DNA of 53,075 nucleotides from Flavobacteriaceae bacterium (lineage in GTDB: Bacteria; Bacteroidota; Bacteroidia; Flavobacteriales; Flavobacteriaceae), in contig JAVHOP010000010.1 of the NCBI GenBank assembly GCA_036170135.1, positions 1 to 53,075 of the forward strand. Direction: 5' to 3'. The notes under the pieces were generated by a model. The model searched no databases. It was not told the origin of the DNA and saw only the letters and a program-made list of their open reading frames with translations. Each line of letters begins with the position of its first letter. Within the stretch, counting starts at the first letter, position 1. The position numbers were made by a program, and so were the translations under genes. Below, piece after piece: positions 1 through 33,967 of this stretch.

Positions 1-25
1 AATTTAATTTTTTCATAAAAATGAT

Positions 26-57
26 AAAAAAACCTCTTAATAAGAGGTTTTTTTTTT
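26..57. terminator. Bidirectional rho-independent terminator hairpin downstream of the esterase gene
   Basis: AACCTCTT (31-38) pairs with AAGAGGTT (42-49) around a 3-nt loop. An A-run precedes it and a T-run (50-57) follows. Confidence 0.6.
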
Positions 58-162
58 ACAAAGGCGCAAATTGTTAATGAAACACTAAGTCATCTTAAAA
101 AATTCTGAAAAATTTTTAAATCTATGATTATTGATAAATTTTAAGATGGTGTATTTAGCCTA

Positions 163-1125
163 TTATTTTATCAGACCGAAAAATTTGGCAGTCCAATAAG
201 TAGCATGAAAATTTTTATCCACCGCAAATCTAGCCACATTTCCACCTTGCCGTTTTTCTGAGCCGGGATCTACAGCCATAGCGTGACCTAAATTATTAAT
301 TTCGTATTTTACAATAACGGGTCTATTATTTTTGAAATAGGTGGTTTTGGTAATGTCGCTATTTCCATTTAATTCAGGAGCTATTATTGGATCGGTATCT
401 ATTTTATGAATTCCTTTCCATTGCATTTCAATTATTTCGGCATTCTTGATATTCACAAACGGATCATCAATACCATGAAATATAACGACTTTTGGGTATT
501 CTCCCTTATAATTCAGATTATTATTGCTTATGGCAGCCACCCATTCTTCATTTGTTTTTTCAATCTTTCCCTGCATGGCCATATATCCCGTTGCTAAATC
601 AGTCGCGGCTTTAAAAGGAATTCCAGACAAAACAGCGCCTGAATTAAATAAATGAGGATAATTTGCTAATAGCACATTGGTCATGGCGCCACCTGCTGAA
701 AAACCAGAAATGAAAATTTTTGAAATATTAATATTATAATTTTTTATGGCATACTGAATCATTTCCATTATTGTTTCAGATTCTCCATCATTCTTTGAAA
801 CATCAATTTCATTAAACCAGTTAAAACATTTACTCAAATTATTCTCTATTTTTTGCTGTGGATACAATACCATAAAATCATTAGAATCCGCCAACGTATT
901 CCAACCGCTTTGGTCGGCAATTTCACTGGCCGTTTGAGAACAACCATGCAAAACAACAACCAATGGTATTTGCTTGTCAATATTTGTCGGCTTATAAACA
1001 TACATTTCCAAATTTCCTTTGTTGGCACCAAAGTTGGTGAGTTCAAATAAATTATTTTGTGAAATGAGCTGAAAACTCGTCAGCAACAAAAACAATCCAA
1101 TGATGTTTTGAACTTTTTTAATCAT
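163..1125 (-). CDS. Secreted esterase, PHB-depolymerase family (CE1-like / LpqC-type)
   Basis: N-terminal signal peptide MIKKVQNIIGLFLLLTSFQLISQ. Family motifs VVLHGCSQTA...GWN..A, NLSKCFNWF and the nucleophile elbow GFSAGG. Confidence 0.8.
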   Translation of the reverse strand: MIKKVQNIIGLFLLLTSFQLISQNNLFELTNFGANKGNLEMYVYKPTNIDKQIPLVVVLHGCSQTASEIADQSGWNTLADSNDFMVLYPQQKIENNLSKCFNWFNEIDVSKNDGESETIMEMIQYAIKNYNINISKIFISGFSAGGAMTNVLLANYPHLFNSGAVLSGIPFKAATDLATGYMAMQGKIEKTNEEWVAAISNNNLNYKGEYPKVVIFHGIDDPFVNIKNAEIIEMQWKGIHKIDTDPIIAPELNGNSDITKTTYFKNNRPVIVKYEINNLGHAMAVDPGSEKRQGGNVARFAVDKNFHATYWTAKFFGLIK

Positions 1126-1155
1126 TTTTATTTCAATTTAAAAAACAAAAAACAC

Positions 1156-1950
1156 TTATTTTACTAGCCCTCGTGAAATAACGCCTCCAGTAATTTCGAG
1201 CGTTGTTCCGGTAACTGCTTCATTTTGAATAGCGAAAATTAAAGCGTTTACAATTTCATCAATTTTAACCAACCGTCCAATTGTTACGTCTTTAACAATG
1301 CTGTCCAGCACTTCCGGTTTCATTCCCAATAAAAGCGGCGTTTCAACATAACCTGGAGCGATGCCGACAACGCGAATTCCTTTGATGTTTTTTGCGTGAA
1401 ATTCACCCGCCAATATCTTTGGCCACAATGCCACTGAAGCCTTTGTTGAACTATAATTTAGCTGTCCTAATTGTCCTTCTTTGTTAATAGAGGAAATGGT
1501 AAAAAGCACCCCTTCGCATTGGTTATCAATCATTCTGATAGATGCTTCTCTGATGGTCAAAAATGTTCCCAATAAATTTACATTAATCACATCCATAAAT
1601 TGAGAAGTGCTCATTGTTTTAAATACTTTTCCCGTTTCGCGATCTGGGCTAATCATAAATGCATCCCTAAATATTCCTGCGGAAGGCACTACAATATTTA
1701 TGGCACCATAGGTATCTATTGCAACATCCATTAATTTAATGACATCAGCTTCTTGGCTAACATTTGTTTTAACGGAAATAGCCTCTCCACCATTTTTTCT
1801 AATTTCAGCAACTTTGGCATTTAAGCCTTCTTCATTCATGTCTCCAAGAACAATTTTAACGCCTAATTTAGCTAGTTCTACGGCTACTCCTGCACCAATT
1901 CCACTGGCTCCTCCTGTAATTACTGCAACTTTATTTTTTATATTCATCAT
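1156..1950 (-). CDS. Classical short-chain dehydrogenase/reductase (3-hydroxyacyl / 3-oxoacyl type)
   Basis: TGGASGIG Rossmann motif and YSSTK (YxxxK) catalytic motif in 264 aa. The ATGA overlap couples its start to the upstream ligase stop. Confidence 0.85.
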   Translation of the reverse strand: MMNIKNKVAVITGGASGIGAGVAVELAKLGVKIVLGDMNEEGLNAKVAEIRKNGGEAISVKTNVSQEADVIKLMDVAIDTYGAINIVVPSAGIFRDAFMISPDRETGKVFKTMSTSQFMDVINVNLLGTFLTIREASIRMIDNQCEGVLFTISSINKEGQLGQLNYSSTKASVALWPKILAGEFHAKNIKGIRVVGIAPGYVETPLLLGMKPEVLDSIVKDVTIGRLVKIDEIVNALIFAIQNEAVTGTTLEITGGVISRGLVK

Positions 1951-3455
1951 TTGTTTTTTAATAATTTTCTATCAATTTTACCTGTGTCATTTTTAGGAAT
2001 CTCCTTTAGAAATTCGATATATTTTGGGATTTTAAATTTCGCCAATTTGACCTGGCAATAGTCCAATATTTCTTTTTCTGCAAGCGATTTTTCAGCTGTT
2101 ACAATAAATGCTTTGCCTACTTCACCCCATTTTTCATGGGGCACACCAATTACTGCAACCTCCAAAATGCCAGGATGTTCCTGAAGCACACGTTCAATTT
2201 CAGCCGGATAAACATTTTCGCCACCTGATATATACATATTTTTTATGCGATCTACCACAAACAAATAATCTTCATCATCGCGTATAACTATATCACCTGT
2301 ATAAAACCAGCCATCTTTTAAAGATTCTTTAGTTGCTTCCTCATTTTGCCAATAGCCAGGTGAAACCATCGGCCCTTTTAGCAACAATTCTCCTTTTTGA
2401 TTTTTACCGACTTTAGTTCCATTTTCATCAACAATTTTTGTTTGTACATAAAAATTTGGACGGCCAATAGATCCCTTTTTCCGAATGGCATCATCTTGAT
2501 GAAGAGACGTTAAATTAGGACCAACTTCAGTTAAACCATAACCCTGACGAATTAAAACGCCTTGTTTTTTCCATATTTCAATGAGCGGAATTGGCATGGC
2601 TTCACCACCCACAATACAGTACATCAAACTTGAAAAATTAGTTGTTTTAAATGAAGGCTCATCCGACATCATTTTTAACATTGTAGGAACTCCCATAAAC
2701 AAGGTAAACTGTTCTTCTTCAATCAAATTTAAAATTGTTCCAGAACAAAAAGATTTTATGATAACCAAACTTCCGCCGTGGTGAAGCACGGGAGTTACCA
2801 AAACATTCCATCCTCCGGTGTGAAATGGTGGCATACAATTGATGGTTTTTGTATTGGTGTTTATTACCAAACTAATTGCCGTGTTTATGCTGTTCCAAAA
2901 CAACATTTTATGAGTGTAGATGGCTCCTTTTGGAATCCCCGTTGTTCCTGATGTAAATAAGATAAAAATTGGATGGTTTTCATCAACCATATTGATGGGA
3001 AAATCAGCTTTATATTTTTCTTCTTCGAGATTTTTAAGGATTTTAGAAAAATCGGTAATCTCAAAAACCTCACCCAATTTGTTTTTCGAAAATTCCGTTT
3101 GAGAAACCTTTGTCTTGTAAACATTATCGTGTATAAGAATTTTCGGATCTGAAATTTTTATTAAATGATTTAATTCACTCGTGGTTAATCGATAATTTAA
3201 AGGAACTAAAATAACACCCGTTTTTTGTGCAGCCACAAAAAATAAAAGGTATTCCAAACAATTTTCAGCAACAAAAGCAATACGGTCACCCTTTATCAAA
3301 TTCAGCTGTTCTGTTAGATAAAAGGCCAATTTATTGCCTAATGAATTCAACTGTAGATAGCTTAGCATACTCCCCGTTTCATATTCCTTTAAAGCAATTT
3401 TGTGAGGCGAATAAACCGCCCATTTTGCCATCCAATCTTGCTGCCAAACTTCCAT
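1947..3455 (-). CDS. AMP-dependent synthetase/ligase (acyl- or aryl-CoA ligase family)
   Basis: Motifs FTSGTTGIPKG, GYGLTE, FYTGD and GKIDRK. I prefer the ATG at 3455, which sits 7 nt after the upstream TAA and is preceded by GGAGG. The ORF-track start at 3500 is a GTG giving a 38-nt overlap. Confidence 0.85.
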   Translation of the reverse strand: MEVWQQDWMAKWAVYSPHKIALKEYETGSMLSYLQLNSLGNKLAFYLTEQLNLIKGDRIAFVAENCLEYLLFFVAAQKTGVILVPLNYRLTTSELNHLIKISDPKILIHDNVYKTKVSQTEFSKNKLGEVFEITDFSKILKNLEEEKYKADFPINMVDENHPIFILFTSGTTGIPKGAIYTHKMLFWNSINTAISLVINTNTKTINCMPPFHTGGWNVLVTPVLHHGGSLVIIKSFCSGTILNLIEEEQFTLFMGVPTMLKMMSDEPSFKTTNFSSLMYCIVGGEAMPIPLIEIWKKQGVLIRQGYGLTEVGPNLTSLHQDDAIRKKGSIGRPNFYVQTKIVDENGTKVGKNQKGELLLKGPMVSPGYWQNEEATKESLKDGWFYTGDIVIRDDEDYLFVVDRIKNMYISGGENVYPAEIERVLQEHPGILEVAVIGVPHEKWGEVGKAFIVTAEKSLAEKEILDYCQVKLAKFKIPKYIEFLKEIPKNDTGKIDRKLLKNK

Positions 3456-3462
3456 AACCTCC

Positions 3463-4449
3463 TTATAATTTAAAGATTGCTCCCGCAAAAGCCAATCCAC
3501 CCCCAGAGCCTATAAATAATACGGTATCTCCTTCTTTAATTTTATTTTTTTGAATAGCTTCATAATAGGCCATTGGAATACAAGCCGATCCTGTATAGCC
3601 GTAATAATGCATGATGGTCGTTGTTTTATCCATCCCAATGCCTAAAATATCCAACGTTTCTTTGATGCTGTTTATATTTATTTGTGTAATAAAATAATGG
3701 TCAATATCGTGTGGCGTTAAATCAATCTGCTTACACAAATCTATAATCATATTGCTCCAAATAATTGAATTCAGCTCTTTGGGGAATTTTTTAACGAATT
3801 TCAACTGATGATCGCCGTTTTTAATTGAATCTTCTGTTGTTACATTTGCAGTTCCTCCTCCGTAAATGCCCATCCAACTGCTGTATTGGCCTTTTGTTTT
3901 TAATTGCGACGCCAACATTCCGGCACCGCTTTCATCTGATTTTAAAATGACGCCTGAAGCGCCATCAGCAAACAAGGTAACCGTTTTTTTATCGGTTTTA
4001 TTTAGGTGTTTAGACATCGCATAAGCGCCTAACACCAAAATATATTTATAATTTTCATCAGCCTGAATATATTTGGCAGCCACATCCAATGCAGTCACAA
4101 AGCCCGAACAAGCCGAATTTAAATCGAAAGTTCCCGCATTTACTGCCCCCAATCGGTCTTGCACCACAGAAGCTGTTGAAGGTGAAATATATTCCGGCGT
4201 ATCCGTCGATATAATTATTAAATCTAACTCTTCAACTTTTACGTTTGCATTTTTCAAAATTTCGTTCGCGGCGTTTACACATAAATCAGCTGTAGATTCA
4301 TTATCGGCACACCAACGTCTTTCATAAATTTGTACATTTTCACGCAACCAAGTATCTACGTCCTCCTTTAAAATTTCATTGAAATAACTGTTGGGAATTA
4401 CCTTTTTCGGCACATACATTCCTGAACCTATTATTTTTGCATTTCTCAT
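3463..4449 (-). CDS. FabH/KAS III-like thiolase-superfamily protein, apparently lacking the His/Asn decarboxylation residues
   Basis: Collinear with E. coli FabH over 328 aa. The Cys motif FDLNSACSGF is conserved, but FITQININ replaces VPHQANLR and YGYTGSAC replaces HGNTSAAS. Confidence 0.8.
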   Translation of the reverse strand: MRNAKIIGSGMYVPKKVIPNSYFNEILKEDVDTWLRENVQIYERRWCADNESTADLCVNAANEILKNANVKVEELDLIIISTDTPEYISPSTASVVQDRLGAVNAGTFDLNSACSGFVTALDVAAKYIQADENYKYILVLGAYAMSKHLNKTDKKTVTLFADGASGVILKSDESGAGMLASQLKTKGQYSSWMGIYGGGTANVTTEDSIKNGDHQLKFVKKFPKELNSIIWSNMIIDLCKQIDLTPHDIDHYFITQININSIKETLDILGIGMDKTTTIMHYYGYTGSACIPMAYYEAIQKNKIKEGDTVLFIGSGGGLAFAGAIFKL

Positions 4450-4469
4450 ATTTATGTTTTGTAGTTGTA

Positions 4470-5651
4470 TTAACTGCGTTTTAAAATTGAAACCATATTT
4501 GTTGCTCCAGAACCTCCAATATTAAGCACCAAAGCTGCATTGGCATTAGTTACCTGCACGCCAATAGCGTTATCTGTAAGTTGTTTGTGCAACAATGCAT
4601 GCATAGAAACACCGGTTGCGCCAACTGGATGACCTTTTGATTTTAAGCCACCCGATGCATTTACAACACATCTTCCGCCCAAATACACCTCTTTATTCAA
4701 CAAGGCTTCAAATTCATGCCCTTTTTTTGTCAAGCCAATAGCGCTATAAATTAACAATTCCGTAATGGTAAAACAATCGTGAACCTCAGCAATTTGAATA
4801 TCATCAATAGTCATTTTAGCCTGTTGCAAGGCTCTTTTTGTTGCTTCAGCAGCACCATCAAGAAAATAATTGTTTCTTTTGCTTTTCACTATATTTAAAA
4901 AATCACTTGCCGAACTTGTAGCCACTATTTCTACTGAATTATTTGTTTTTTCCGCCGATAAAATTACGGCTGCTGCTCCGTCAGAAATTAGCGAACAATC
5001 GTGCAAACGCAAAGGATAAGCAATCATCGGATTTTTTTCATCCGGCAAATTTAGAAGTTCTTCTTTACTTCGGGATTTTTGCAAATGCGCCAGCGGATTT
5101 TGGCTTCCGAAATGATAAGCTTTTGACGCTATTTCTGCTAAATAATCCTGTAATTGTTCCAAGGAATAGCCATAATGATTCATCCATCCTTTTCCATATT
5201 CGGCAAATAAACCGGGAAATGTATAACCCATAGCGCCTTCTTTTTCCCAGTAGGATGCTTTAGCAAGCACAAGAGAAGTGTTTTTAGTGTCCAAAGAATT
5301 CATCTTTTCAACACCTACCACCAACACTTTTTTTGCTTTGCCCGATTTGATGGCCATTTCAGCCAAATGAATTGCAGAAGTCCCAGAAGCACAGGCATTT
5401 TCTATTCTGTACATTGGTTTAAAACGCAATTCCGGTAAAATATTTACGCCATAAGGTGCTATATGTTCCTGATTGTTAAAGCTTCCACCGCTATAATTTC
5501 CAACAAATACAGCATCGATTTCCTTTATATCAATACTGGCATCTTTAATGGCGCCTTTGGCTGCTTCTTCGTACAAGCTATAAATGGTTTCTTCTTTAAG
5601 ATTCCCAAATTTTGTGTTGTAAGCACCAATAATGTGAATATTTTTATTCAT
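4470..5651 (-). CDS. Thiolase, SCP2/SCP-x type (thiolase-like acetyl-CoA C-acyltransferase)
   Basis: Nucleophile motif ENACASGTSA, EVHDCFT and NASGGLKSKGHPVGATG in 393 aa. Confidence 0.85.
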   Translation of the reverse strand: MNKNIHIIGAYNTKFGNLKEETIYSLYEEAAKGAIKDASIDIKEIDAVFVGNYSGGSFNNQEHIAPYGVNILPELRFKPMYRIENACASGTSAIHLAEMAIKSGKAKKVLVVGVEKMNSLDTKNTSLVLAKASYWEKEGAMGYTFPGLFAEYGKGWMNHYGYSLEQLQDYLAEIASKAYHFGSQNPLAHLQKSRSKEELLNLPDEKNPMIAYPLRLHDCSLISDGAAAVILSAEKTNNSVEIVATSSASDFLNIVKSKRNNYFLDGAAEATKRALQQAKMTIDDIQIAEVHDCFTITELLIYSAIGLTKKGHEFEALLNKEVYLGGRCVVNASGGLKSKGHPVGATGVSMHALLHKQLTDNAIGVQVTNANAALVLNIGGSGATNMVSILKRS

Positions 5652-7152
5652 TTTTTAATATATTTTTGTTGAGTAACCACGCAATAACTAAAGTAGGCAA
5701 AATTACTACAATTATTGATAATGTAGCTGTTACAGAAGGATTAGCGAAAGTAAACCCTGAGTTTGTAAATAGTTCATTTCCATAGAAGTATAACACAAAA
5801 TGGGTAATTACAGCAAGAATTGAAGCTGACCACAATAGTTTTATAGGTGAATTTTTCAACAAAACCCCTACTAACAATGGCGCTAAAGCTGCTAAAACCA
5901 ATCCATAAACCCCAACCTGTCCATAAATACCTAATAATTTAGGTGGATTTATATTAACAGCAAAAACTAAAATAGCAATTACAACAAGGACTACATGACT
6001 CGCCCTAAATGCCAGTTTCATTTTTTGTTCTTGGTTTATTTTCTTTTTACTGAATTTATCGATTAAATTTATAACTAAATCATTTGCAGTGATGGTAGAA
6101 ATGCTAACCAACAAGCCATCTAATGTTGACATTGCTGCCGCTAACAAAACAATGCTGACTAATGTAAAAGTCCAATCTGGGAAAACATTCATTAAATAAA
6201 CAGTCATCACCAAATCTTGTCTAAACTTGCCTGTTGAAGCATCAATTAGTTGATTCGGATCAACTGCAATGTGTGCAAAGAAACCTGCAGAAACTAATAA
6301 TAAGAACAATAATAGAATGATACCGACTACAATAATATAATTTCGAACATCTTTATTTGTTTTTACATATAAAGCTTTTGTTAAAATATGGGGCTGGCAA
6401 ACCAAAGCAGCACCAATAAAAAATCCTGCAACATAGGTTGAAAAGAAATCATTAAACAATTTCCCAGCAGGATTAATAAGTTTTAACAAGTTTGGATCCT
6501 GCTGTGAAATTTGCTCCCAAAATCCAGGATTATGGTTATTCATTATCAACTCGATCCCTGTCCATAATATTGCGACAGATGCAAGAATCATTAAAATACC
6601 TTGAAAAACATTGGTATAAACATGGGCATACGTTCCGCCCAAAAAGACGTAGCCCGTAACAAAAATCAACGTAATTAATAGAGCTGTAATATTGTTTACA
6701 CCAAGCAGTTTTTGCATCACTATAGAAATTCCGCCAACCAACAACACCACAAAAGCAAAAGATAATAAATTAATAAAGGCAAAATACAATGAAAAATTTT
6801 TAGATTGATAGCGTTTTCCAATCCAATCTGGAATGGTTAAAGCTTTCATTTCATCTCCTAATGACCTAAACTTAAATGATAATATAATTAGCATCATCAT
6901 AAATCCTGAATAGGTTCCTAAAACCATACTAATCCATGCCGATAATCCATCTACATAAATAAACCCCGGATTTATAATAAACGTTGCCGCAGATGCTGTA
7001 CTTGCAGCCAGAGTAATTCCAACAACAATTGGCGATAAATCGCCATTTCCTATTGCAAAACTGCTAAAACCATTCGTTTTTTTATAGCCAACCCATCCTA
7101 AATAAGAAGTCCCTATAAAATAAATTGAAAAAAGTGTCCATGCTAATATCAT
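5644..7152 (-). CDS. Sodium:solute symporter (SSS) family transporter
   Basis: 502 aa with about 13 hydrophobic segments and overall resemblance to SSS/ActP/PutP-type permeases. It overlaps both neighbours. Confidence 0.7.
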   Translation of the reverse strand: MILAWTLFSIYFIGTSYLGWVGYKKTNGFSSFAIGNGDLSPIVVGITLAASTASAATFIINPGFIYVDGLSAWISMVLGTYSGFMMMLIILSFKFRSLGDEMKALTIPDWIGKRYQSKNFSLYFAFINLLSFAFVVLLVGGISIVMQKLLGVNNITALLITLIFVTGYVFLGGTYAHVYTNVFQGILMILASVAILWTGIELIMNNHNPGFWEQISQQDPNLLKLINPAGKLFNDFFSTYVAGFFIGAALVCQPHILTKALYVKTNKDVRNYIIVVGIILLLFLLLVSAGFFAHIAVDPNQLIDASTGKFRQDLVMTVYLMNVFPDWTFTLVSIVLLAAAMSTLDGLLVSISTITANDLVINLIDKFSKKKINQEQKMKLAFRASHVVLVVIAILVFAVNINPPKLLGIYGQVGVYGLVLAALAPLLVGVLLKNSPIKLLWSASILAVITHFVLYFYGNELFTNSGFTFANPSVTATLSIIVVILPTLVIAWLLNKNILKNE

Positions 7153-7997
7153 TCTAATTTAATTATAAATTTATTAATTACATTAACGGTCTGTTTTGCC
7201 CCTTCAGAAAACAACATCGTTACATGATTCCCTGCTACTGGGAAATAAGTGCAATTCAACATCATATTTACTGTTTCAACAGCATTTTGTTTTGTTACAA
7301 TAAACTGATCATTAACAAAAGGTTCTGTAGCGTTTATAACAATTGTAGGTTGTTTAATTTGACAGATTAACTTTGTCCAATTAATATTAGAATCTTGAGT
7401 TGCTTCAATGGCTTGTTGGATATGTTCAACCTTTGATCTAGGTTCAATTCCATTTTCAGTCTCGATACAATCAGCTAAGTAAAAATCTTCTATTTTAGAA
7501 TTCCACTGCCCTTTTAAAAATGGTGTATTTTTCATATCAGTTAAATATTCACCATAATTTGTCCAATTTTTATACAACCTTCCTGTTGATGAAGGCTTAA
7601 CCATTTCGATAATTTTTGGATTCATCTTAGCAGCTACATCTATTAAAACGATTTTTAAAAACCTATTTGGAAAATGTGCAGCTAAATAAATAGTTATTAA
7701 TCCTCCAAATGAATGTCCTGCCAAAATTGCATTATCAATTTTTAAAACATCCATTAAACCAATGATGTCAAGTGCATGTTCTTTGATAGTATATCCAGAA
7801 TTAGGCTTATCGCTTAAACCTCGACCACGCAGATCAATAGAAATAACTCTATAATCTTTTATTAAAGCTATATAACTACCAAAAGAATTTGCATTAGCAC
7901 TCAAGCCATGTAATAAAATTAATACTGGTTTAAGATTCTTGTTTTTTTCTAAATAATGAATTCTATTGCCATTAGTTTTAATAAAATACTGCTTCAT
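7149..7997 (-). CDS. Cytoplasmic alpha/beta-fold hydrolase
   Basis: The HG oxyanion motif (LILLHGL), GHSFGG nucleophile elbow and absence of a signal peptide. It resembles the enol-lactonase / dehalogenase / epoxide-hydrolase branch. Confidence 0.8.
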   Translation of the reverse strand: MKQYFIKTNGNRIHYLEKNKNLKPVLILLHGLSANANSFGSYIALIKDYRVISIDLRGRGLSDKPNSGYTIKEHALDIIGLMDVLKIDNAILAGHSFGGLITIYLAAHFPNRFLKIVLIDVAAKMNPKIIEMVKPSSTGRLYKNWTNYGEYLTDMKNTPFLKGQWNSKIEDFYLADCIETENGIEPRSKVEHIQQAIEATQDSNINWTKLICQIKQPTIVINATEPFVNDQFIVTKQNAVETVNMMLNCTYFPVAGNHVTMLFSEGAKQTVNVINKFIIKLE

Positions 7998-8017
7998 ATA
8001 AAATCCTTATTTAAGAA

Positions 8018-8058
8018 AAGCCTAAGAACATAAAACATAATTTAATATTCTTAGGCTT
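8018..8058 (-). terminator. Intra-operon hairpin (partial terminator or processing site) between the TBDR and hydrolase genes
   Basis: Perfect 11-bp stem AAGCCTAAGAA (8018-8028) / TTCTTAGGCTT (8048-8058) with a 19-nt loop. On the minus strand it is followed by TTCTTAAAT, which is only weakly T-rich. Confidence 0.4.
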
Positions 8059-8072
8059 GAGATATTTGTAGG

Positions 8073-10520
8073 CTAAAGTTTTAATTTTAATTCTAAACCA
8101 ATACTTCTTTCACTAGGTGGTGAGGCAACAAACTCATAATTGTGTGTATCAAATATATTGTTTACATAGCCTCCTAAAGAGAATTTGTTAGTGATATTAT
8201 ATCCAAAATTTAAACTTAGGGAAAAGCCTCCTAATGGTCCGTAATTAAATTTTTTGCCAACGCGTTGTCCAACTACAACAGGGTCGCCTCCAATCATAAT
8301 ATCAGTATTTGTTTTGGCTGATACATTTCTTCCTGAAAAGAAATCATATTTTTGAATCCAACGTGATAGCAATGAGCCATAAAAATTATTGTTTTTAAAA
8401 TTAAAAGCAGAACTAATTTTATTTTTTGGTGTATTAATAGGTAAATCTAATACTGTAACTACACCATTTCTATCGCCATCATTAGCCATATCATTTTTAT
8501 CTAACGAAAAATTAAAGTATGAATAATTAAAAGATATACTATAGCTATCATTAAAATAATAGTTTAATCCAAAATCAAACCCATAAGTATCAACTTTTCC
8601 AAAATTTAAATAGGTTAAGATATACCCACCTGCTGGATAAAATCCAGGAGCTAAACCTCCTGTTAATTCTTCAATTGGTTGATCTCCCCTAAGTTTTACC
8701 ACTGGACCTCCAGACAAACCTGTTGGTACGATATTGGTTAGTGGACTTAAAAAGTTTTCGGATATATTATAATATGCATTTGCATCAATAAATAATTTAT
8801 TCTCTATTAAAGTTCCTTTGTATCCAGCTTCAAAAGTTTTTACTTTTTCTATTTCAGCTGGTTTTATTTTAGTGCCATCAGATAATGTAAATCCTACCCC
8901 ATTACCTAATATCACGCCACCAAATAAATTACCACTTAAATTTAATATAGTTGGTGCTGTTACACCTTTGCCATATGTAAGTCTCCAAGTACCTTTATCT
9001 TTTGAATAAGTTATTCCTATCTTAGGTATAAAATTAAAACCATATAAATCATGATCATCTCCTCTAGCTGCTGCAACAATTTTTACGCCAGAATCACCTA
9101 TTTTATAATCTAGCTGTCCATAAATTCCTTTTTGTTCAAGGTAAATTGGTCCAGTGGCATCAATTAAATAGGTGTCTCTACTATCGGCTTTATCTTTTTG
9201 ATATTGAGCACCAATAATGTAATCTAAATTATCTATACTATTATGATATTGCAATTCAGCATTTAAACGATCTGATTTGTCAACGAATATAGGTGGATTA
9301 ATTCCTCCATAAGACCCTGCTAAAGCTTCTTGATTTGTTTTTCCCTTTGCAATTAGTCCCCAATAGTTTTCGGTACGTGTTGTTATGGCATAAGTACTAT
9401 CAGTAGAACTAATTGTTTTATACAATTGTGCGAAAAAATGTTTTGAAGTATATGTACCATGTAAATATTTTATCTTCCAATCTTTTATTTGGTTTCTACC
9501 AACACTTGTAACGGCCAAATAGCTGCTGTTACTTGTACCATAATTCAATTTTATTTCACTACTTGTAGTTGGTTTATAGTAAACTGAAGCTTCTGCTTTT
9601 AAAAATTTTGATTTACGGTCAAGCTCCAATTCTGGATGTGCTTTTCCTGCAACATAAACAGAATCAGTCCAATTTACATCTGTACCTTCTAAATAACCAC
9701 CCGTAATTTTATAAGCCCACTTATCACTTAATTTTTGGGCATGTCTAAATCTTGTGCTAAAAGTGTTAAAAGAACCTCCTCCAACTACAATTTCAGTACC
9801 TGGATATTTCCATGGCGTTTTAGTAATCGTGTTTATCAATCCATTAGAGGCATTTGGTCCGTATAATGCAGAAGATGGTCCAAGAACTATCTCAATTCGT
9901 TCAATATCTTCTTTGATTATAGGACTTAATGGACCCATAGGTAAGCCCGTGGCTATTAATGAAGAAAGTCTATTATCGTCTAATTGGAGCATTTTAGGAT
10001 TAAATGCAGAATTGAAACCTCTCACATTAAAACCACTTACAAAAGCACCTGTTTTTATAAAATCAATGCCCTTTTGTTGCGCAATTAATTCACTGGGATC
10101 TCCTGTAAAATTATCCAATACCCTAGCATTAATAACATTGATTGTTGCGGGTGCTTCTGTAATTTTTTCAAGTCTCCTTGATGCTGATGTTACCACAATA
10201 TCATCAAACTTTTGATAACTGCTATTAAGAATTATAACACCCATATCAACCATATCTCCATTTATGGTTACTTGTGTTTTGTATGTTGTGTATCCCAAAA
10301 AGGATATTGAAACCGTATAGGTACCATTGTTAATATTTTTGAATTCAAAATCGCCATTTAAATCAGACGTTGTACCTTTGCTTAGGTTTTCAATAAAAAT
10401 ACTCGCTTGTGATACTTTTCCACCATCTTCATCAGTAATAGTTCCTTTTAGCCCGCCTTGCGAATAAATGGAGTTAAAGATGAATAAACAAATCAAATAA
10501 AAAATAAAGTTTTTTTTCAT
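8073..10520 (-). CDS. TonB-dependent outer-membrane receptor with N-terminal CarboxypepD_reg domain (no SusD partner)
   Basis: Signal peptide followed by a carboxypeptidase-regulatory-like fold (GTITDEDGG...GTYTVSISFLGY). A plug region (ITEAPATINVI) and a long beta-barrel rich in aromatic-X-aromatic strands follow, for 815 aa in total. Confidence 0.9.
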   Translation of the reverse strand: MKKNFIFYLICLFIFNSIYSQGGLKGTITDEDGGKVSQASIFIENLSKGTTSDLNGDFEFKNINNGTYTVSISFLGYTTYKTQVTINGDMVDMGVIILNSSYQKFDDIVVTSASRRLEKITEAPATINVINARVLDNFTGDPSELIAQQKGIDFIKTGAFVSGFNVRGFNSAFNPKMLQLDDNRLSSLIATGLPMGPLSPIIKEDIERIEIVLGPSSALYGPNASNGLINTITKTPWKYPGTEIVVGGGSFNTFSTRFRHAQKLSDKWAYKITGGYLEGTDVNWTDSVYVAGKAHPELELDRKSKFLKAEASVYYKPTTSSEIKLNYGTSNSSYLAVTSVGRNQIKDWKIKYLHGTYTSKHFFAQLYKTISSTDSTYAITTRTENYWGLIAKGKTNQEALAGSYGGINPPIFVDKSDRLNAELQYHNSIDNLDYIIGAQYQKDKADSRDTYLIDATGPIYLEQKGIYGQLDYKIGDSGVKIVAAARGDDHDLYGFNFIPKIGITYSKDKGTWRLTYGKGVTAPTILNLSGNLFGGVILGNGVGFTLSDGTKIKPAEIEKVKTFEAGYKGTLIENKLFIDANAYYNISENFLSPLTNIVPTGLSGGPVVKLRGDQPIEELTGGLAPGFYPAGGYILTYLNFGKVDTYGFDFGLNYYFNDSYSISFNYSYFNFSLDKNDMANDGDRNGVVTVLDLPINTPKNKISSAFNFKNNNFYGSLLSRWIQKYDFFSGRNVSAKTNTDIMIGGDPVVVGQRVGKKFNYGPLGGFSLSLNFGYNITNKFSLGGYVNNIFDTHNYEFVASPPSERSIGLELKLKL

Positions 10521-10531
10521 AATAATTAGGT

Positions 10532-11092
10532 TTAGATTAAGTTAGTTATATACTTTGTTTTCATTATATTAGAGGCTTTTTTTAATAATATTTCATTATG
10601 ATTTGATAAATAAGAAGCGAAAACACCTACCCTAAATATTTCAAATTCAAAAGATTCACTGTTGGGATTTTTGTACCCCATTTCTTTCATCAATTCATAA
10701 ACCTTACGTCTAAAATTCTTAGAGTGTTCAAGAACTTTATTTAAAATAAGTTCTTTAGTATCTGGTTGATATAGCAAAGCCATATATAAATCCCAGAAAG
10801 GCCTCTCATCTTTTAATGACTTAAAAAAGACATCTATTATATTTTCCAATTCTTCTCTAGGAGTTAAACTTGGCTTTTGATTAATTATCAAATCAACTTT
10901 TAAAAGAATTAAATCTATCGTTGCATCAAGTAATTCCCTTTTAGTACCAAAATGATAGAATAATAAACCAGATGAAATTTTGGCTTTCTTACAAATTTCA
11001 GCTGTAGATGTCTTATGATAACCGTTTTTAGCAAACATTTTCATTGCGACTTGTAGGATATTTATCTTTGCACTTTTCTTTTCTGTTTCCAT
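10532..11092 (-). CDS. TetR/AcrR family transcriptional regulator
   Basis: N-terminal HTH ILQVAMKMFAKNGYHKTSTAEICKKAKISSGLLFYHFGTKRELL in 186 aa. It is the first gene of the cluster, 11 nt upstream of the TBDR. Confidence 0.9.
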   Translation of the reverse strand: METEKKSAKINILQVAMKMFAKNGYHKTSTAEICKKAKISSGLLFYHFGTKRELLDATIDLILLKVDLIINQKPSLTPREELENIIDVFFKSLKDERPFWDLYMALLYQPDTKELILNKVLEHSKNFRRKVYELMKEMGYKNPNSESFEFEIFRVGVFASYLSNHNEILLKKASNIMKTKYITNLI

Positions 11093-11111
11093 ATATTTAA
11101 AGTTTAAAAAA

Positions 11112-11133
11112 ACTAACTAAGTAATCAGTCAGT
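11112..11133 (-). promoter_or_regulatory. Candidate TetR operator (imperfect 22-bp palindrome)
   Basis: ACTAACTAAGT|AATCAGTCAGT matches its own reverse complement at 16 of 22 positions. It lies 20 nt upstream of the tetR start codon. Confidence 0.25.
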
Positions 11134-11298
11134 AAATATATAAAATATATTGATTTTACAATATCGGTTTCTTAATTTTTTTTTAACTTTTAATTTATTG
11201 AAAAACAGGTGAATAAAAAATATAGTATTTAATATTATTGAAATTGTCCATTTTCAAAAATTATGAAATGGCTTTTAAAAGGAAGTCTTTTCGTTCTA

Positions 11299-12114
11299 TT
11301 ATGCTAGAAGAGCATAAGCAACCAACCATAAAATTGGAATACCTTCAACCCAAAAGGCGCTATAATATTTGTTTTGATTTGTGGATGATTTAAGCAATAA
11401 AAATCCTAAACAAACAGCTATCAAACCATCAATCCATAAATATTTTGTCTTTATATAAAAACAGTCAATAGCTAAAAATAATCCCAAAAATATCAATCCC
11501 AATATTTTAGTGTTCTTTACGCCTAGCCAAATTGGCAACGTTAGTAATGATTCAGAATCATATAATACATCTCTGATATCGAACGATAATGTTAAAGCAA
11601 CTACAAATAAAAACCGCTGAAAAAATAACCATAAACCAGTATTGTTAAATATTCCGTATTGCATCAAAGGAAATAAAACGGTGATTCCAGCCCACGAAAA
11701 AGCAATGAGAAATATCTTAATTGCTGGTAAATTTCTGAGGTTAATATTTTTTGAAATGAAAGGAGGCAATACATATAATAGGGTTAAAAAGGCAAACGGA
11801 ATTAAGATAAACAAAGCCTGTAAACGTATTTTGAAAATCAGATAAACACAAGCCAAAAATGATAAAATACTCAACAAAATCAAATCGGTCTTATTGCTTT
11901 TCAACCATTTAAAATACCACGACTTGACCTGTTTTAAACGCGTTAAGCGAATATAATTATAAGATAATATCGTAGCAAAAAACACAAATAACGGAACTGT
12001 ATTATCACTGTTTTTACAATCTAACAAGGTTATTTTAGTTAGACTAAAACTGGATAATGCCACATGAATATTGCTAAAAATATAAAAATTGAAAATTTTT
12101 TTTAAAAGGCTCAT
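11299..12114 (-). CDS. Polytopic membrane protein with distant UbiA-prenyltransferase-like features
   Basis: About 8 hydrophobic segments. The motifs LRNLPAIKIFLIAFSW and FDIRDVLYD resemble the UbiA-family second Asp-rich region. No first NxxxDxxxD motif was seen. Confidence 0.45.
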   Translation of the reverse strand: MSLLKKIFNFYIFSNIHVALSSFSLTKITLLDCKNSDNTVPLFVFFATILSYNYIRLTRLKQVKSWYFKWLKSNKTDLILLSILSFLACVYLIFKIRLQALFILIPFAFLTLLYVLPPFISKNINLRNLPAIKIFLIAFSWAGITVLFPLMQYGIFNNTGLWLFFQRFLFVVALTLSFDIRDVLYDSESLLTLPIWLGVKNTKILGLIFLGLFLAIDCFYIKTKYLWIDGLIAVCLGFLLLKSSTNQNKYYSAFWVEGIPILWLVAYALLA

Positions 12115-12195
12115 ATCACAAATATATCTAAATATTTAACATCATTTTACCATTTACTTTCGCACTAATAAGTCCAATTTTTCTTAAAATTTAAG

Positions 12196-12203
12196 TACTT
12201 TTG
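12196..12203 (+). promoter_or_regulatory. Candidate Bacteroidota -7 box upstream of gcvP
   Basis: TACTTTTG matches TAnnTTTG and lies 29 nt before the ATG. No clear -33 TTTG was found. Confidence 0.3.
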
Positions 12204-12231
12204 GGCAACTAATTTAAAACAAATAAACACC

Positions 12232-15081
12232 ATGGAAACTTCGGCTTTCGCATCGCGACATATAGGTCCAAACACCAGTGAATTAAAAGAAATGTTACAA
12301 ACTATTGGGGTTGATTCTCTAGATGAATTAATTGACAAAACCATTCCAAAAAACATCCGATTAAAAGCCAATTTAGACCTTCCAAAAGCCATGTCTGAAT
12401 ATGAGTTTACAAACTTTATAAACAAACTTGGACTCAAAAATAAATTGTATAAAACCTATATTGGTTTGGGGTATCACCCAACAATACTTCCAGCTGTTAT
12501 CCAACGCAATATTTTCGAAAACCCAAGTTGGTACACTTCGTATACCCCTTATCAAGCCGAAATCTCGCAAGGTCGTTTAGAAGCGCTCTTGAATTTTCAA
12601 ACTATGGTTTGCGATTTAACCGGATTTAGCTTGGCTAATTCCTCTCTTTTAGACGAGGCTACTTCGGCTGCCGAAGCCATGATTATGTTATTTAACGGTC
12701 GAAGTCGCACTCAAATTAAAGACGGTGTCAATCAATTTTTAGTTTCTGATGATGTGCTTCCACAAACTAAATCAGTTTTAGAAACACGTTCGGTACCACT
12801 CGGAATTGAATTGGTTTTTGGAAGTATAAACAATACTGAGCTAACTTCAAAAATATTTGGTGTTATTGTACAATATCCAGGAAAATTCGGACAAGTAAAT
12901 AACTACAGCCCTTTTATAGAAAAAGCACATCAAAAAGATATCAAAGTCGTTATGGCTGCCGATTTATTGAGTTTGGTTTTACTAAAATCACCAGCAGAAT
13001 TAGGTGCTGATGTCGCTGTTGGCACAAGCCAGCGCTTTGGTATTCCACTTGGTTATGGCGGACCACACGCCGGTTATTTTGCGACTTCAGATGCCTATAA
13101 ACGTCAAATCCCAGGTAGAATTATCGGCATTTCTAAAGACGCACAAGGCAATCGCGCTTTGCGAATGGCGTTACAAACCAGAGAACAACACATCAAACGC
13201 GAAAAAGCAACTTCAAACATTTGTACAGCCCAAGTATTTTTAGCCGTTATGGCTGGCATGTATGCTATTTATCACGGTGCCGATGGTTTAAAACGCATCG
13301 CTAAAAAAATCCATTCGCTTGCCAATATTTTAAATGGTGCCATTCTAAAAATGGGCCTAAATCAGATTAATACTGCATTTTTCGACACTTTGCAAATTAA
13401 AGTTAAAGATGCTGCTAAACTAAAAATACTTGCCGAACAACAAGAAATCAACTTTTTAATAATCGATAAAACTACCATTGGCATTTCTTTAAACGAAACA
13501 ACTTCTTTAGATGATGTCAAAGAAATTGTAGCTGTTTTAGCTAAAGCTGAAGGGAAGACGGCTCTAAATATTACTGACTATTTTGAATCAACTTCAATTC
13601 CGAAAGATTTGCAAAGAACTTCTGATTTCTTAAATAATGAAGTATTTGAAAAATATCATTCCGAAACCGAAATGATGCGTTATATAAAAACCTTAGAAAA
13701 GAAAGATATCTCTTTGACAAACAGTATGATTTCTTTAGGTTCTTGTACGATGAAGCTAAATGCCGCAACTGAAATGTTGCCATTAAGTTCGGCTAATTGG
13801 AATAGCATTCATCCTTTTGTGCCGTTTAGTCAAGCCGAAGGTTATCAAGAACTAATTAAAGATTTAGAACATTCGTTAAATGTTATCACGGGTTTTGCAG
13901 CCACTTCATTACAACCAAACTCAGGTGCTCAAGGCGAATATAGTGGTTTGATGACGATTAGGGCTTATCACATTTCAAAGGGTGATTCTCATCGAAATAT
14001 CGTGTTAATTCCTTCTTCTGCGCACGGTACCAATCCAGCTTCGGCAGTGATGGCAGGATTCAATGTTATGGTTACAAAAACCACTCCCGAAGGCAATATT
14101 GATGTTGAAGACATCAAAGAAAAAGCACTGCTTTATAAAGATAATTTAGCAGCCTTAATGGTAACCTATCCATCTACGCACGGTGTTTTTGAAACATCAA
14201 TTACAGAAATCACTAAAATTATTCACCAAAATGGTGGTCAAGTTTATATGGATGGCGCTAATATGAATGCTCAAGTTGGCTTGACAAATCCAGCTACTAT
14301 TGGAGCAGATGTATGCCATTTGAATCTTCATAAAACATTTGCCATTCCTCACGGTGGTGGCGGACCAGGCGTTGGACCAATTTGTGTAGCAAAACATTTA
14401 GCTCCTTTTTTACCAACTAATGCAGTTGTTAAAACTGGCGGAACGCAAGCAATTCCAGGCGTTTCTGCAGCTCCATGGGGTTCTGCTTTAGTGGATATTA
14501 TCGCATATGCTTATATCAAAATGTTAGGAGGAAAAGGTTTAAAAATGGCTACCTGTTATGCTATTTTGAATGCAAACTATTTAAAAGCTGCTTTAAAAGA
14601 TGATTTTAAAACACTTTATTCAGGTGAAAACGGATTTGTAGGTCACGAAATGATTCTCGATTTTAGACATATTAAACCGCAATATGGTGTTGATGTTACA
14701 GATGTTTCAAAACGCTTAATGGATTTTGGCTATCACGCACCAACGCTATCGTTCCCAGTTCATGATACCTTAATGATAGAGCCAACTGAAAGTGAAAATA
14801 AAGCTGAGTTAGATAAGTTTATTGCTACCATTAAATGTATCCGTCAAGAAATTTTAGCATATCAAAAAGACAAAGATTCTGCTTTAAAAAATGCACCACA
14901 TACCGAAGCTATGGTTACTGCTGATGAATGGAATTATACTTATGGCAGACAACACGCTGCATTTCCATTAGATTTTATTAAAGTAAGTAAATTTTGGCCA
15001 AGTGTAAGTCGCGTTGATGATGGTTATGGCGATAGAAACCTTGTTTGCACTTGTAATCCTATTGAAGATTATATGAACTAA
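12232..15081 (+). CDS. gcvP: Glycine dehydrogenase (decarboxylating), single-chain P protein
   Basis: 949 aa, beginning FASRHIGP, with a PLP-lysine region NLHKTFAIPHGGGGPG. Confidence 0.97.
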   Translation: METSAFASRHIGPNTSELKEMLQTIGVDSLDELIDKTIPKNIRLKANLDLPKAMSEYEFTNFINKLGLKNKLYKTYIGLGYHPTILPAVIQRNIFENPSWYTSYTPYQAEISQGRLEALLNFQTMVCDLTGFSLANSSLLDEATSAAEAMIMLFNGRSRTQIKDGVNQFLVSDDVLPQTKSVLETRSVPLGIELVFGSINNTELTSKIFGVIVQYPGKFGQVNNYSPFIEKAHQKDIKVVMAADLLSLVLLKSPAELGADVAVGTSQRFGIPLGYGGPHAGYFATSDAYKRQIPGRIIGISKDAQGNRALRMALQTREQHIKREKATSNICTAQVFLAVMAGMYAIYHGADGLKRIAKKIHSLANILNGAILKMGLNQINTAFFDTLQIKVKDAAKLKILAEQQEINFLIIDKTTIGISLNETTSLDDVKEIVAVLAKAEGKTALNITDYFESTSIPKDLQRTSDFLNNEVFEKYHSETEMMRYIKTLEKKDISLTNSMISLGSCTMKLNAATEMLPLSSANWNSIHPFVPFSQAEGYQELIKDLEHSLNVITGFAATSLQPNSGAQGEYSGLMTIRAYHISKGDSHRNIVLIPSSAHGTNPASAVMAGFNVMVTKTTPEGNIDVEDIKEKALLYKDNLAALMVTYPSTHGVFETSITEITKIIHQNGGQVYMDGANMNAQVGLTNPATIGADVCHLNLHKTFAIPHGGGGPGVGPICVAKHLAPFLPTNAVVKTGGTQAIPGVSAAPWGSALVDIIAYAYIKMLGGKGLKMATCYAILNANYLKAALKDDFKTLYSGENGFVGHEMILDFRHIKPQYGVDVTDVSKRLMDFGYHAPTLSFPVHDTLMIEPTESENKAELDKFIATIKCIRQEILAYQKDKDSALKNAPHTEAMVTADEWNYTYGRQHAAFPLDFIKVSKFWPSVSRVDDGYGDRNLVCTCNPIEDYMN

Positions 15082-15184
15082 TTTTTAAGTTGAATGATTT
15101 GAGTGGCAAGTTTATCCCATTCTTTATAATGATTTTATAATCTGATAGGTTGCGATATCGTTTTAGTTGTTTTTAAAAATGTAA

Positions 15185-15216
15185 TTGTTAAAAATGCAAT
15201 TAAAATAGTATTTTTG
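15185..15216 (+). promoter_or_regulatory. Candidate sigma-A promoter for pdhA-E2
   Basis: TTG at 15185-15187 and TATTTTTG (TAnnTTTG) at 15209-15216, with a spacer of about 21 nt. It lies 32 nt before the ATG. Confidence 0.4.
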
Positions 15217-15247
15217 CCTCTTAACAATTTTCAATTTTAATGATTAT

Positions 15248-16246: not shown

Positions 16247-16257
16247 CAGAAATAATT

Positions 16258-30143: not shown

Positions 30144-30156
30144 AGTTATTTTATCA

Positions 30157-30762
30157 TTATTTAGAGTATAACTCTACGATTAGTTGTTCTTTAATATTTT
30201 CAGGAATCTGAATTCTTTCTGGAATATTAACAAAAGTTCCCATTTTGGTTTCGCTATTCCAAGTTAGCCATTCGTAAACACTTTTGCTATTATTTAAAGA
30301 GTCGTCAATTGTTGATAGTGATTTAGATTTTTCTCTAACAGCTATAACATCATTTGGTTTTAAAGCATAAGATGGAATGTTTACAATGTTACCATTTACG
30401 GTAATGTGTCGGTGTGATACTAATTGACGCGCTGCTCTTCTAGAAGGAGCAATGCCCATTCTATAAACAACGTTGTCTAATCTTGATTCACAAAGTTGCA
30501 ATAAAATTTCACCAGTAATACCTTTACTACTTGAAGCTTTCTCAAAAATATTTCTAAACTGACGTTCTAAAATACCATAGGTATATTTTGCTTTTTGTTT
30601 TTCTTGTAGCTGAATTGCGTACTCCGATTTTTTACCGCGACGTCTTGTGCTACCATGTTGTCCTGGAGGAAAATTTCTCTTTTCAAAAGATTTATCTTCT
30701 CCAAAGATAGCTTCGCCAAATTTGCGAGCTATTTTAGTTTGTGGTCCTGTATATCTTGCCAT
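30157..30762 (-). CDS. rpsD: 30S ribosomal protein S4
   Basis: [17 protein letters not shown] and an S4 RNA-binding domain. Confidence 0.97.
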
Positions 30763-31234: not shown

Positions 31235-31242
31235 GCTTTTTA

Positions 31243-31617: not shown

Positions 31618-31619
31618 AA

Positions 31620-31736: not shown

Positions 31737-31747
31737 CGGTTATTGTT

Positions 31748-33291: not shown

Positions 33292-33303
33292 TTACTTAGG
33301 GTA

Positions 33304-33756: not shown

Positions 33757-33769
33757 AGTTTAATATCTC

Positions 33770-33955: not shown

Positions 33956-33967
33956 CTTCTTTAAATT

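Follow-up and report, generated by a model that had tools for sequence, protein, structure and literature searches.

A run of nine consecutive minus-strand open reading frames (ORFs) at 163-11092, leading from tetR to a signal-peptide esterase, was analysed in a 53,075-nucleotide stretch of contig JAVHOP010000010.1 (GenBank assembly GCA_036170135.1), which belongs to a marine Lutibacter; the whole stretch is called the window here. We consider it probable that the nine genes form a TetR-controlled operon with which the cell scavenges and catabolises short-chain polyhydroxyalkanoate (PHA), mainly polyhydroxybutyrate (PHB), in the form of 3-hydroxybutyrate (3HB) oligomers, and one protein family of the locus, a FabH-like protein with an altered active site, may carry out new chemistry. 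Protein families were assigned with Pfam and NCBIfam scans of the window ORFs. A first-pass annotation of the sequence had claimed the same-strand run with its gaps and overlaps and a family for each of the nine proteins; the ORF coordinates bear out the former and the scans the latter. In order of coordinate, the genes are as follows.

163-1125, minus strand: exported PHB-depolymerase-family esterase, 320 aa, a single type-1 catalytic domain (Pfam Esterase_PHB).
1156-1950, minus strand: classical short-chain dehydrogenase/reductase (SDR), 264 aa (adh_short), proposed as a (R)-3-hydroxybutyryl-CoA (or 3HB) dehydrogenase.
1947-3455, minus strand: adenylate-forming acyl-CoA ligase, 502 aa (AMP-binding and AMP-binding_C).
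3463-4449, minus strand: FabH-like protein of ketoacyl-ACP synthase III (KAS III) fold, where ACP is acyl carrier protein, 328 aa (ACP_syn_III), with Cys114-Thr255-Tyr285 as its triad by alignment to S. aureus FabH.
4470-5651, minus strand: archaeal/SCP2-type thiolase, 393 aa (Thiolase_N/Thiolase_C_1), proposed as an acetoacetyl-CoA thiolase.
5644-7152, minus strand: sodium:solute symporter (SSS) family transporter, 502 aa (PF00474, 149 bits), proposed for inner-membrane uptake of 3HB or its dimer.
7149-7997, minus strand: cytoplasmic alpha/beta hydrolase, 282 aa (Abhydrolase_1, GHSFGG, no signal peptide), proposed as a 3HB-oligomer (dimer) hydrolase.
8073-10520, minus strand: TonB-dependent receptor (TBDR), 815 aa (Pfam Plug and, at the N-terminus, CarbopepD_reg_2), with a signal peptide and no SusD partner.
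10532-11092, minus strand: TetR-family regulator, 186 aa (Pfam TetR_N), the first gene of the unit.

In the route that we propose, the exported esterase would cleave PHB polymer or oligomers, perhaps in the periplasm, the TBDR would carry oligomers over the outer membrane, the symporter would move 3HB or its dimer across the inner membrane, and the cytoplasmic hydrolase would split the residual ester bonds. The ligase would then form 3-hydroxybutyryl-CoA, the NAD-type SDR would oxidise this to acetoacetyl-CoA, and the thiolase would yield two acetyl-CoA; in another possible order, the SDR would oxidise free 3HB and the ligase would then activate acetoacetate. From the observed gene content, families, active-site substitutions and neighbourhood conservation, we infer the substrate, the localisation of the proteins, the sequence of the reactions and what the FabH-like protein catalyses. 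The PHB form of the reading is favoured because the esterase passes a curated PHA depolymerase model, the SDR, thiolase and ligase fit a 3-hydroxy acid, importers and exported hydrolases are linked to the core, and a related locus in Limibacter armeniacum carries a depolymerase. No ACP, crotonase/hydratase or acyl-CoA dehydrogenase was found among the nine genes in the ORF list or by Pfam and NCBIfam, as the first-pass annotation had stated; this absence is to be expected if the substrate already bears a 3-hydroxyl, whereas a route from cinnamates or fatty acids would truly lack a step.

The esterase matches NF050058 (e_dPHAscl_type1), the NCBI curated model of the catalytic domain of type-1 extracellular short-chain-length PHA depolymerases, with a score of 268 bits (cut-off 150), and the match takes in the whole model (positions 1-276). 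It also passes TIGR01840 (183 bits, cut-off 107.85), and among solved structures it is closest to 8daj, a PHB depolymerase family esterase of one domain (124 bits). Following an N-terminal signal peptide, its motifs occur in the order LHGC (oxyanion), GFSAGG (serine box), HGIDD and LGHA; the Ser and Asp align with those of 8daj, and the His was placed from the motif alone. The catalytic domain is followed at once by the C-terminus (residue 320), and neither Pfam nor the sequence itself revealed a linker, substrate-binding domain, lipobox or type IX secretion system (T9SS) tail. In classical PHB depolymerases, a linker (Fn3 or Thr-rich) and a C-terminal PHB-binding domain are typical, if not universal. 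Because the signal peptide is present without a substrate-binding domain, lipobox or T9SS tail, we propose that the esterase may stay in the periplasm and act there on imported oligomers.

An independent pointer to PHB comes from the sequence of Limibacter armeniacum (Cytophagales), which has in one locus an SSS transporter, a lipoprotein hydrolase, a TBDR, an SDR, the FabH-like protein, a ligase, a cytoplasmic hydrolase and a 652-aa esterase (13535-15493 of locus L017) that scores 297 bits against NF050058. This esterase is built of a catalytic domain, an Fn3 domain, a domain of ~130 aa without a match, and a C-terminal stretch of ~70-80 aa that by eye resembles a T9SS sorting domain. Catalytic and Fn3 domains followed by further C-terminal domains make up the architecture of classical secreted PHB depolymerases. 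The Limibacter TBDR is 46% identical to that of the window over its full length, and the locus is preceded by a histidine kinase and LytTR regulator pair, not by TetR.

The enzymes proposed to act on the released acid are consistent with a 3-hydroxyacyl substrate. The SDR has as its best solved relative the (3R)-hydroxyacyl-CoA dehydrogenase of yeast MFE-2 (2et6, 139 bits), and it carries the YxxxK motif and an Asp at the end of β2 (VLGD), a residue that marks NAD-preferring, typically catabolic, SDRs; by its sequence, we read the window SDR as NAD-preferring. The thiolase aligns end to end with an archaeal acetoacetyl-CoA thiolase (6esq, 191 bits), with the catalytic motifs of that enzyme conserved (the Cys of NACASG, HDCF and GHPVGATG), and reaches 401 bits with NCBIfam PRK07516, just under the cut-off of 412. 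The ligase reaches no NCBIfam equivalog cut-off; its nearest solved relatives are 8wev/8weu and FadD13, and its sequence places it as a FadD13/MenE-like ANL enzyme. The cytoplasmic hydrolase resembles many Abhydrolase_1 enzymes (intracellular PHB depolymerases included) only weakly and in its N-terminal part, and scores 63 bits with i_nPHAscl, below the threshold of 300. Its GHSFGG motif was read from the sequence, as were the signal peptide of the esterase and the want of a SusD partner for the receptor, all in agreement with the first-pass annotation.

Both transport genes encode proteins that would act inwards. The receptor scores 68 bits against the SusC model TIGR04056, whose cut-off is 368, and no SusD-family ORF was found in the cluster, either in the ORF list or by Pfam; assignment to the canonical polysaccharide utilisation loci (PULs) was rejected on these two grounds. 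The window also holds a genuine PUL-type pair at 47421-52201 on the plus strand, a canonical SusC-like protein (1099 aa, CarboxypepD_reg and Plug) with a SusD-like partner (489 aa), which contrasts with the SusD-less 815-aa receptor of the cluster; a 560-aa ORF without a Pfam hit (45688-47370) precedes it. SSS carriers suit small hydrophilic monocarboxylates. If the proposed route is correct, the symporter would be a new candidate for a 3HB carrier, and hbtABC has been stated to be the only confirmed bacterial 3HB uptake system (2023, PMC10130141).

Comparison of gene neighbourhoods connects this set of functions across phyla. A metagenome scan yielded 80 more loci with the FabH-like gene, and neighbours were counted in those 41 loci whose sequence reaches at least 5 kb upstream and at least 6 kb downstream of it. 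A core of SDR, FabH-like protein, SSS transporter and ligase recurs in Bacteroidota and Ignavibacteriota: the ligase accompanies the FabH-like gene in 39 of the 41 loci, the SDR and an alpha/beta hydrolase in 38 each, and the symporter in 33. An outer-membrane importer stands beside the gene in all 41, as an orthologue of the window TBDR in 14 and as a protein of ~520 aa in the other 27. Cytoplasmic hydrolases recur across the related loci, and many of the alpha/beta hydrolases there are exported lipoproteins. Regulators differ (TetR, MarR or LytTR two-component systems), as do thiolases, which are of the archaeal type in Lutibacter-type loci, classical in ten loci and absent from the rest; the Lutibacter arrangement, with a PF10503 esterase, is found again in flavobacterial contigs of TARA and other metagenomes. 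Because a constant cytoplasmic core is joined to interchangeable front ends for import and hydrolysis, the pattern indicates a predicted role in catabolic uptake and not in biosynthesis.

The ~520-aa protein, which replaces the TBDR in most non-Lutibacter loci, has a signal peptide and a C-terminal Phe within the ending W-L-[MI]-F. It is usually preceded by a lipoprotein of 170-310 aa and followed by a lipoprotein alpha/beta hydrolase; the gene for the smaller lipoprotein was detected in 23 of the 41 loci, and the pair can be seen at 14177-16326 of locus L010 as well as in L011, L013, L015 and L018. The smaller lipoprotein has a G-x-W motif and sub-threshold Lipocalin_4 similarity, and is weakly lipocalin-like. 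Neither protein gave a significant match in Pfam, NCBIfam or the PDB, and the ~520-aa protein probably represents an unclassified family of outer-membrane barrels, judging from its sequence. A minimal module of TBDR, FabH-like protein and ligase was also observed amid unrelated housekeeping genes (TrkH, methyltransferases, LysR) at 7316-12763 of locus L066 and in L042 and L060, where no SDR, SSS transporter or hydrolase lies within 10 kb.

Several observations weigh against PHB as the substrate, the assignment of which draws on sequence and context. The family of the esterase, PF10503, also holds feruloyl and acetylxylan esterases, and two of these in the PDB score only slightly below 8daj (acetylxylan esterase 5x6s, 107 bits; feruloyl esterase 8iy8, 100 bits); because these relatives follow so closely, the substrate cannot be read from the family alone. 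Among the 41 well-flanked loci, a PF10503 depolymerase is present in only 7, while the remaining loci have Abhydrolase_1 lipoproteins with sub-threshold similarity to PHA depolymerases. The closest structure to the ligase, 8wev (327 bits), was deposited as a feruloyl-CoA synthetase; the enzyme is FadD13-like and is no ACS-like acetoacetyl-CoA synthetase such as the classical pathway uses. The SDR falls below all NCBIfam equivalog cut-offs, and models of 3HB dehydrogenases (BdhA, 118 bits, cut-off 258) give it a lower score than do those of acyl-thioester reductases. Finally, the most conserved member of the set is the FabH-like protein, yet the proposed route is complete without using it.

The relatives of the esterase and the ligase, and the rarity of PF10503 enzymes among the related loci, would fit another ester-linked substrate, such as feruloyl or other acyl esters, from which the esterase would free an acid for activation by the ligase and beta-oxidative shortening of its side chain by the SDR and thiolase. 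We regard this as unlikely. The enoyl-CoA hydratase or lyase that it needs is absent from the cluster and from the related loci examined, whereas the esterase passes the curated short-chain-length PHA depolymerase model, the thiolase is closest to acetoacetyl-CoA thiolases and the SSS carrier fits a small hydrophilic monocarboxylate. Utilisation of an ester-linked substrate was one of two readings offered in the first-pass annotation, and it is supported here with its example of PHA or 3HB oligomers favoured; its hydroxycinnamate example, and with it a ferulate route, is disfavoured by the missing hydratase/lyase.

The FabH-like protein departs from its namesake at the active site, a feature that the first-pass annotation had missed. 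Compared with S. aureus FabH, the protein retains the nucleophilic Cys (NSACSGF) and has Thr in place of His (TQIN for HQAN) and Tyr in place of Asn (GYTGSA for GNTSAA). All 121 homologues share the Cys and the Tyr, and 120 of them also the Thr; the homologues are still ~65% identical across Saprospiraceae, Cytophagales, Ignavibacteriaceae and Melioribacteraceae. The label “FabH-like” given by the first-pass annotation thus holds for the fold, to which FabH structures are the top matches, but not for catalysis, as the His and Asn of the KAS III triad are absent. The protein is ~31% identical to FabH, reaches 170 bits with FabH structures, and scores 218 bits against the NCBIfam fabH model TIGR00747, below the cut-off of 292. 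An AlphaFold (AF2) model (pLDDT 86.6) is confident except in an insertion at 186-225 (~50-70), and its top Foldseek matches are genuine FabH structures at TM-scores of 0.86-0.92; only canonical FabH and BioZ/PqsD were returned by this fold search, which gave no functional clue. Relative to FabH, the insertion holds the motif W192-M-G-I-Y-G-G, invariant throughout the family, and is sited at the active-site capping loops. The boundary of the family was drawn from a profile search of 1.84 billion representative proteins. Approximately the top 23 representatives (at or above ~265 bits) have Cys-Thr-Tyr, an xMGIYxG insertion motif and a variable residue at the position of the ACP-docking Arg, whereas below ~260 bits Cys-His-Asn appears with the docking Arg back (106 of 150 hits). 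By these sequence features, the Cys-Thr-Tyr proteins form a discrete clade of Bacteroidota and Ignavibacteriota.

In FabH, His and Asn drive malonyl decarboxylation and enolate stabilisation, while the Cys, activated by a helix dipole, carries out transacylation, which mutants without His or Asn retain; ACP is docked by a conserved Arg (Arg249 of E. coli, in HQANxR). The corresponding residue is Asn260 in the window protein and varies across the clade, and the Trp of FabH that contacts the CoA adenine is conserved. An ordinary FabH, or any decarboxylating condensing enzyme, was rejected for want of the Cys-His-Asn triad. Because the Cys is kept and both His and Asn are replaced, the protein probably forms an acyl-Cys from acyl-CoA with no malonyl decarboxylation and probably no use of ACP, and its most likely reaction, as predicted from these residues, is a Cys-dependent acyl transfer without decarboxylation, acting on the CoA thioester that the ligase would make. 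Three candidate reactions can be ranked. The first is a thiolase-like, non-decarboxylative cleavage of acetoacetyl-CoA, the predicted SDR product, which is suggested because the SDR and FabH-like genes adjoin, with an ATGA overlap, in most non-Lutibacter loci. The second is CoA-dependent thiolysis of ester bonds in CoA-activated 3HB oligomers, which would spare ATP in the largely anaerobic carriers. Acyl transfer to ACP is the third candidate and is disfavoured because the docking Arg is lost.

Tentatively, and with more doubt than attaches to the PHB assignment, the Cys-Thr-Tyr proteins could be a new thiolase-superfamily class for polyester catabolism, acting either in thiolysis of oligomer-CoA or as retro-Claisen thiolases, and together with the TBDR, or the 520-aa barrel and lipoprotein, could define a “polyester utilisation locus” shared by Bacteroidota and Ignavibacteriota. 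In the thiolysis version, each ester bond would give one 3HB-CoA for a single ATP-dependent activation, which would suit fermentative or anaerobic lineages. The retro-Claisen version would amount to a non-decarboxylative “thiolase” on a FabH scaffold, with a Thr/Tyr oxyanion hole.

Transfer to ACP is central to another explanation, in which the locus would scavenge acyl groups for lipid synthesis, with the ligase activating acids, the FabH-like protein serving as an acyl-CoA:ACP transacylase and a FabG-like SDR assisting. Most loci do retain the trio of AMP-ligase, KAS III-fold protein and FabG/PhaB-like SDR, the SDR scores 295 bits against a FabG model with a cut-off of 296, and the transacylation that is kept by FabH mutants and the weakly lipocalin-like lipoprotein of many loci would both be in keeping with such a function. 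We nevertheless consider it improbable, as the docking Arg is not conserved in the Cys-Thr-Tyr clade and comes back with His and Asn in canonical hits, both SDR types bear the NAD-type Asp typical of catabolic dehydrogenases, and thiolases and PHB depolymerases occur in the loci.

The other reading of the first-pass annotation was a small-molecule biosynthetic cluster of the OleABCD type, or a similar one, with transporters that would export or traffic the product. The four superfamilies of OleA-D are indeed present (thiolase-like protein, alpha/beta hydrolase, ANL ligase and SDR); their defining residues and subfamilies are not, and the context is one of import and hydrolysis. OleA is a thiolase-superfamily enzyme with Cys-His-Asn (plus Glu), OleB is haloalkane-dehalogenase-like with an Asp nucleophile, OleC is a beta-lactone synthetase, and OleD is an extended, NADPH-dependent SDR of the 3beta-HSD type. 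Here, the KAS III-fold protein is without the His and Asn of OleA and scores 71 bits with OleA structures against the 170 for FabH, the hydrolase has a Ser nucleophile (GHSFGG), and the SDR is of the 264-aa classical NAD type. The ligase does belong to the ANL family of OleC, with CoA ligases as its nearest solved relatives. Failure of three of the four proteins in active-site and subfamily tests led us to reject OleABCD-like biosynthesis; moreover, TBDRs and SSS carriers are importers, and exported hydrolases accompany the core everywhere, so that any small-molecule biosynthesis is highly improbable.

Returning to PHB catabolism, the cluster resembles the classical Proteobacterial route (PhaZ, 3HB-oligomer hydrolase, BdhA, acetoacetyl-CoA synthetase or CoA transferase, PhaA) in having an exported type-1 catalytic domain, a candidate oligomer hydrolase, an SDR, CoA activation and thiolysis. 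It differs in that all steps lie in one operon with a dedicated TBDR and SSS transporter, the depolymerase is without linker or substrate-binding domain, the ligase is FadD13/MenE-like, the SDR is nearer to acyl-CoA dehydrogenases/reductases than to BdhA, the thiolase is of the archaeal/SCP2 type, and a conserved Cys-Thr-Tyr KAS III-fold protein is added. With SusC/SusD PULs it shares co-regulated exported hydrolase(s), a TBDR, an inner-membrane carrier, cytoplasmic catabolism and “selfish” oligomer uptake, but it has no SusD, an 815-aa non-SusC receptor, a TetR regulator and, as proposed, a polyester substrate. The cluster is thus like the classical PHB route in its chemistry and like a PUL in its organisation, and is a member of neither as defined.

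The Cys-Thr-Tyr protein likewise has partial counterparts. It shares with FabH the best sequence and fold match, the Cys at a helix N-terminus and the CoA-adenine Trp, and differs in the substitutions His244 to Thr and Asn274 to Tyr, in the loss of the ACP-docking Arg and in a context unrelated to fatty-acid synthesis. CerJ, ChlB6, DpsC and PqsBC, KAS III-like acyltransferases and priming enzymes with altered triads, are alike in their KAS III fold, kept nucleophile, lost malonyl-decarboxylation residues and acid-activating partner. These enzymes keep the His (Cys/Ser-His-Asp or Cys-His) and belong to natural-product clusters, whereas the present clade has Thr and Tyr with an invariant WMGIYGG-type insertion and stands in a predicted catabolic uptake locus. 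In the archaeal complex of acetoacetyl-CoA thiolase, hydroxymethylglutaryl-CoA (HMG-CoA) synthase and DUF35 seen in 6esq, a thiolase similar to that of the window works with HMG-CoA synthase, much as the window thiolase lies beside a KAS III-fold protein. Such a complex is unlikely here: the cluster has no DUF35 gene, its KAS III-fold protein is without the HMG-CoA synthase His, and in other phyla the Cys-Thr-Tyr protein is accompanied by a classical thiolase or by no thiolase at all.

In the full-text literature searched, with subscription journals outside its scope, we found no TBDR-linked PHB locus in Bacteroidota and no Cys-Thr-Tyr KAS III protein. PHB is a major bacterial carbon store as well as a commercial biodegradable plastic, and depolymerase-secreting Proteobacteria and Actinobacteria are usually credited with the turnover of PHB in sediments, sludge and the sea. 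If our assignment is correct, Bacteroidota and Ignavibacteriota would follow a PUL-like polyester strategy in which PHB fragments are captured through the outer membrane. The locus draws attention to a discrete and strongly conserved family of enzymes whose KAS III active site is unprecedented, together with two unclassified outer-membrane proteins. Its recognition as a PHB locus would also improve calls of “plastic-degrading potential” in metagenomes, where present labels are generic (ketoacyl-ACP synthase III, AMP-binding protein, alpha/beta hydrolase).

Among close relatives, the nine genes are syntenic and not scattered, an outcome that the first-pass annotation had put forward as a check of its cluster. 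When all window proteins were searched with tblastn, every Lutibacter contig of sufficient length showed the full order TetR-TBDR-hydrolase-SSS-thiolase-FabH-like-ligase-SDR-esterase, and, with the metagenome scan, eight complete and fully covered Lutibacter-type copies were obtained. In a scan of one genome per species, the FabH-like protein is 88-95% identical in nine Lutibacter metagenome-assembled genomes and 57-67% identical in other Bacteroidota. Identity to the window ranges by gene from ~56% for TetR, ~64% for the cytoplasmic hydrolase, ~75% for the TBDR and ~80% for the esterase to ~89% for the SSS transporter, ~90% for the ligase, ~94% for both thiolase and FabH-like protein and ~95-96% for the SDR; by these sequence comparisons, constraint is much tighter on the cytoplasmic enzymes than on the regulator, hydrolase and envelope parts. 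Loci L029 and L030 (TARA and JGI marine contigs) show, inside a single syntenic cluster, a mosaic of identities to the window (thiolase 84-85%, SDR 73-74% and SSS 73%; FabH-like protein 61-62%, ligase 61% and esterase 49-51%), which suggests that modules may have been exchanged inside the operon.

The tetR gene holds the first position in all complete Lutibacter-type loci, and a short repeat upstream of it is a plausible operator, on the evidence of sequence conservation. This element and the hairpin that closes the operon are listed here.

11114-11131, minus strand: candidate TetR operator, an imperfect inverted repeat TGACTGATTACTTAGTTA (TGACTGA-N4-TTAGTTA), 21 nt upstream of the tetR start.
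26-54, minus strand: intrinsic-terminator-like hairpin, a 13-bp stem followed by a T-run, 3' of the last gene.

The repeat has the family consensus TGACTGA-N4-TTAGTCA and is the sole conserved island in the otherwise diverged tetR upstream regions of ten Lutibacter-type loci. The hairpin is the sole terminator-like site outside coding regions within 1-12500; the remaining ones in this interval sit within coding regions and occur at the rate of shuffled controls. Counts in a sigma-70 promoter scan, which does not cover Bacteroidota promoters, equalled those of shuffled controls, and Rfam gave no RNA element within the cluster. Spacings from tetR downward, taken from the ORF coordinates, are 11, 75, -4, -8, 20, -38 (or +7), -4 and 30 nt. 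The ambiguous value reflects the ligase start, for which the ATG at 3455 gives a gap of +7 and a protein of 502 aa, with the ORF open to a GTG at 3500 that would give -38; the former is likelier because gene callers chose the 502-aa form for the identical gene in three other assemblies.

The base composition of the cluster is uniform with that of the remaining window, and its flanks are of housekeeping character, with GcvP, 2-oxoacid dehydrogenase E1/E2, GuaA, citrate synthase, enolase and ribosomal operons. The next gene upstream of the operon, at 11299-12114 on the minus strand, encodes a 271-aa multi-pass membrane protein with no Pfam or NCBIfam match, and no homologue of it was detected beside the cluster in other Lutibacter loci. 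Two neighbouring amidinotransferase-fold genes lie on the minus strand at 20955-21893 and 22728-23663, of which one is a strong match to dimethylarginine dimethylaminohydrolase (DDAH; 368 bits) and the other a weak DDAH/arginine-deiminase match. Within the ribosomal-protein/SecY/RpoA/EF-G block (~29151-44627), an S4-Flavobacteria ribosomal protein leader (RF03141, 48.7 bits) is found upstream of rpsD at 30784-30816 on the minus strand.

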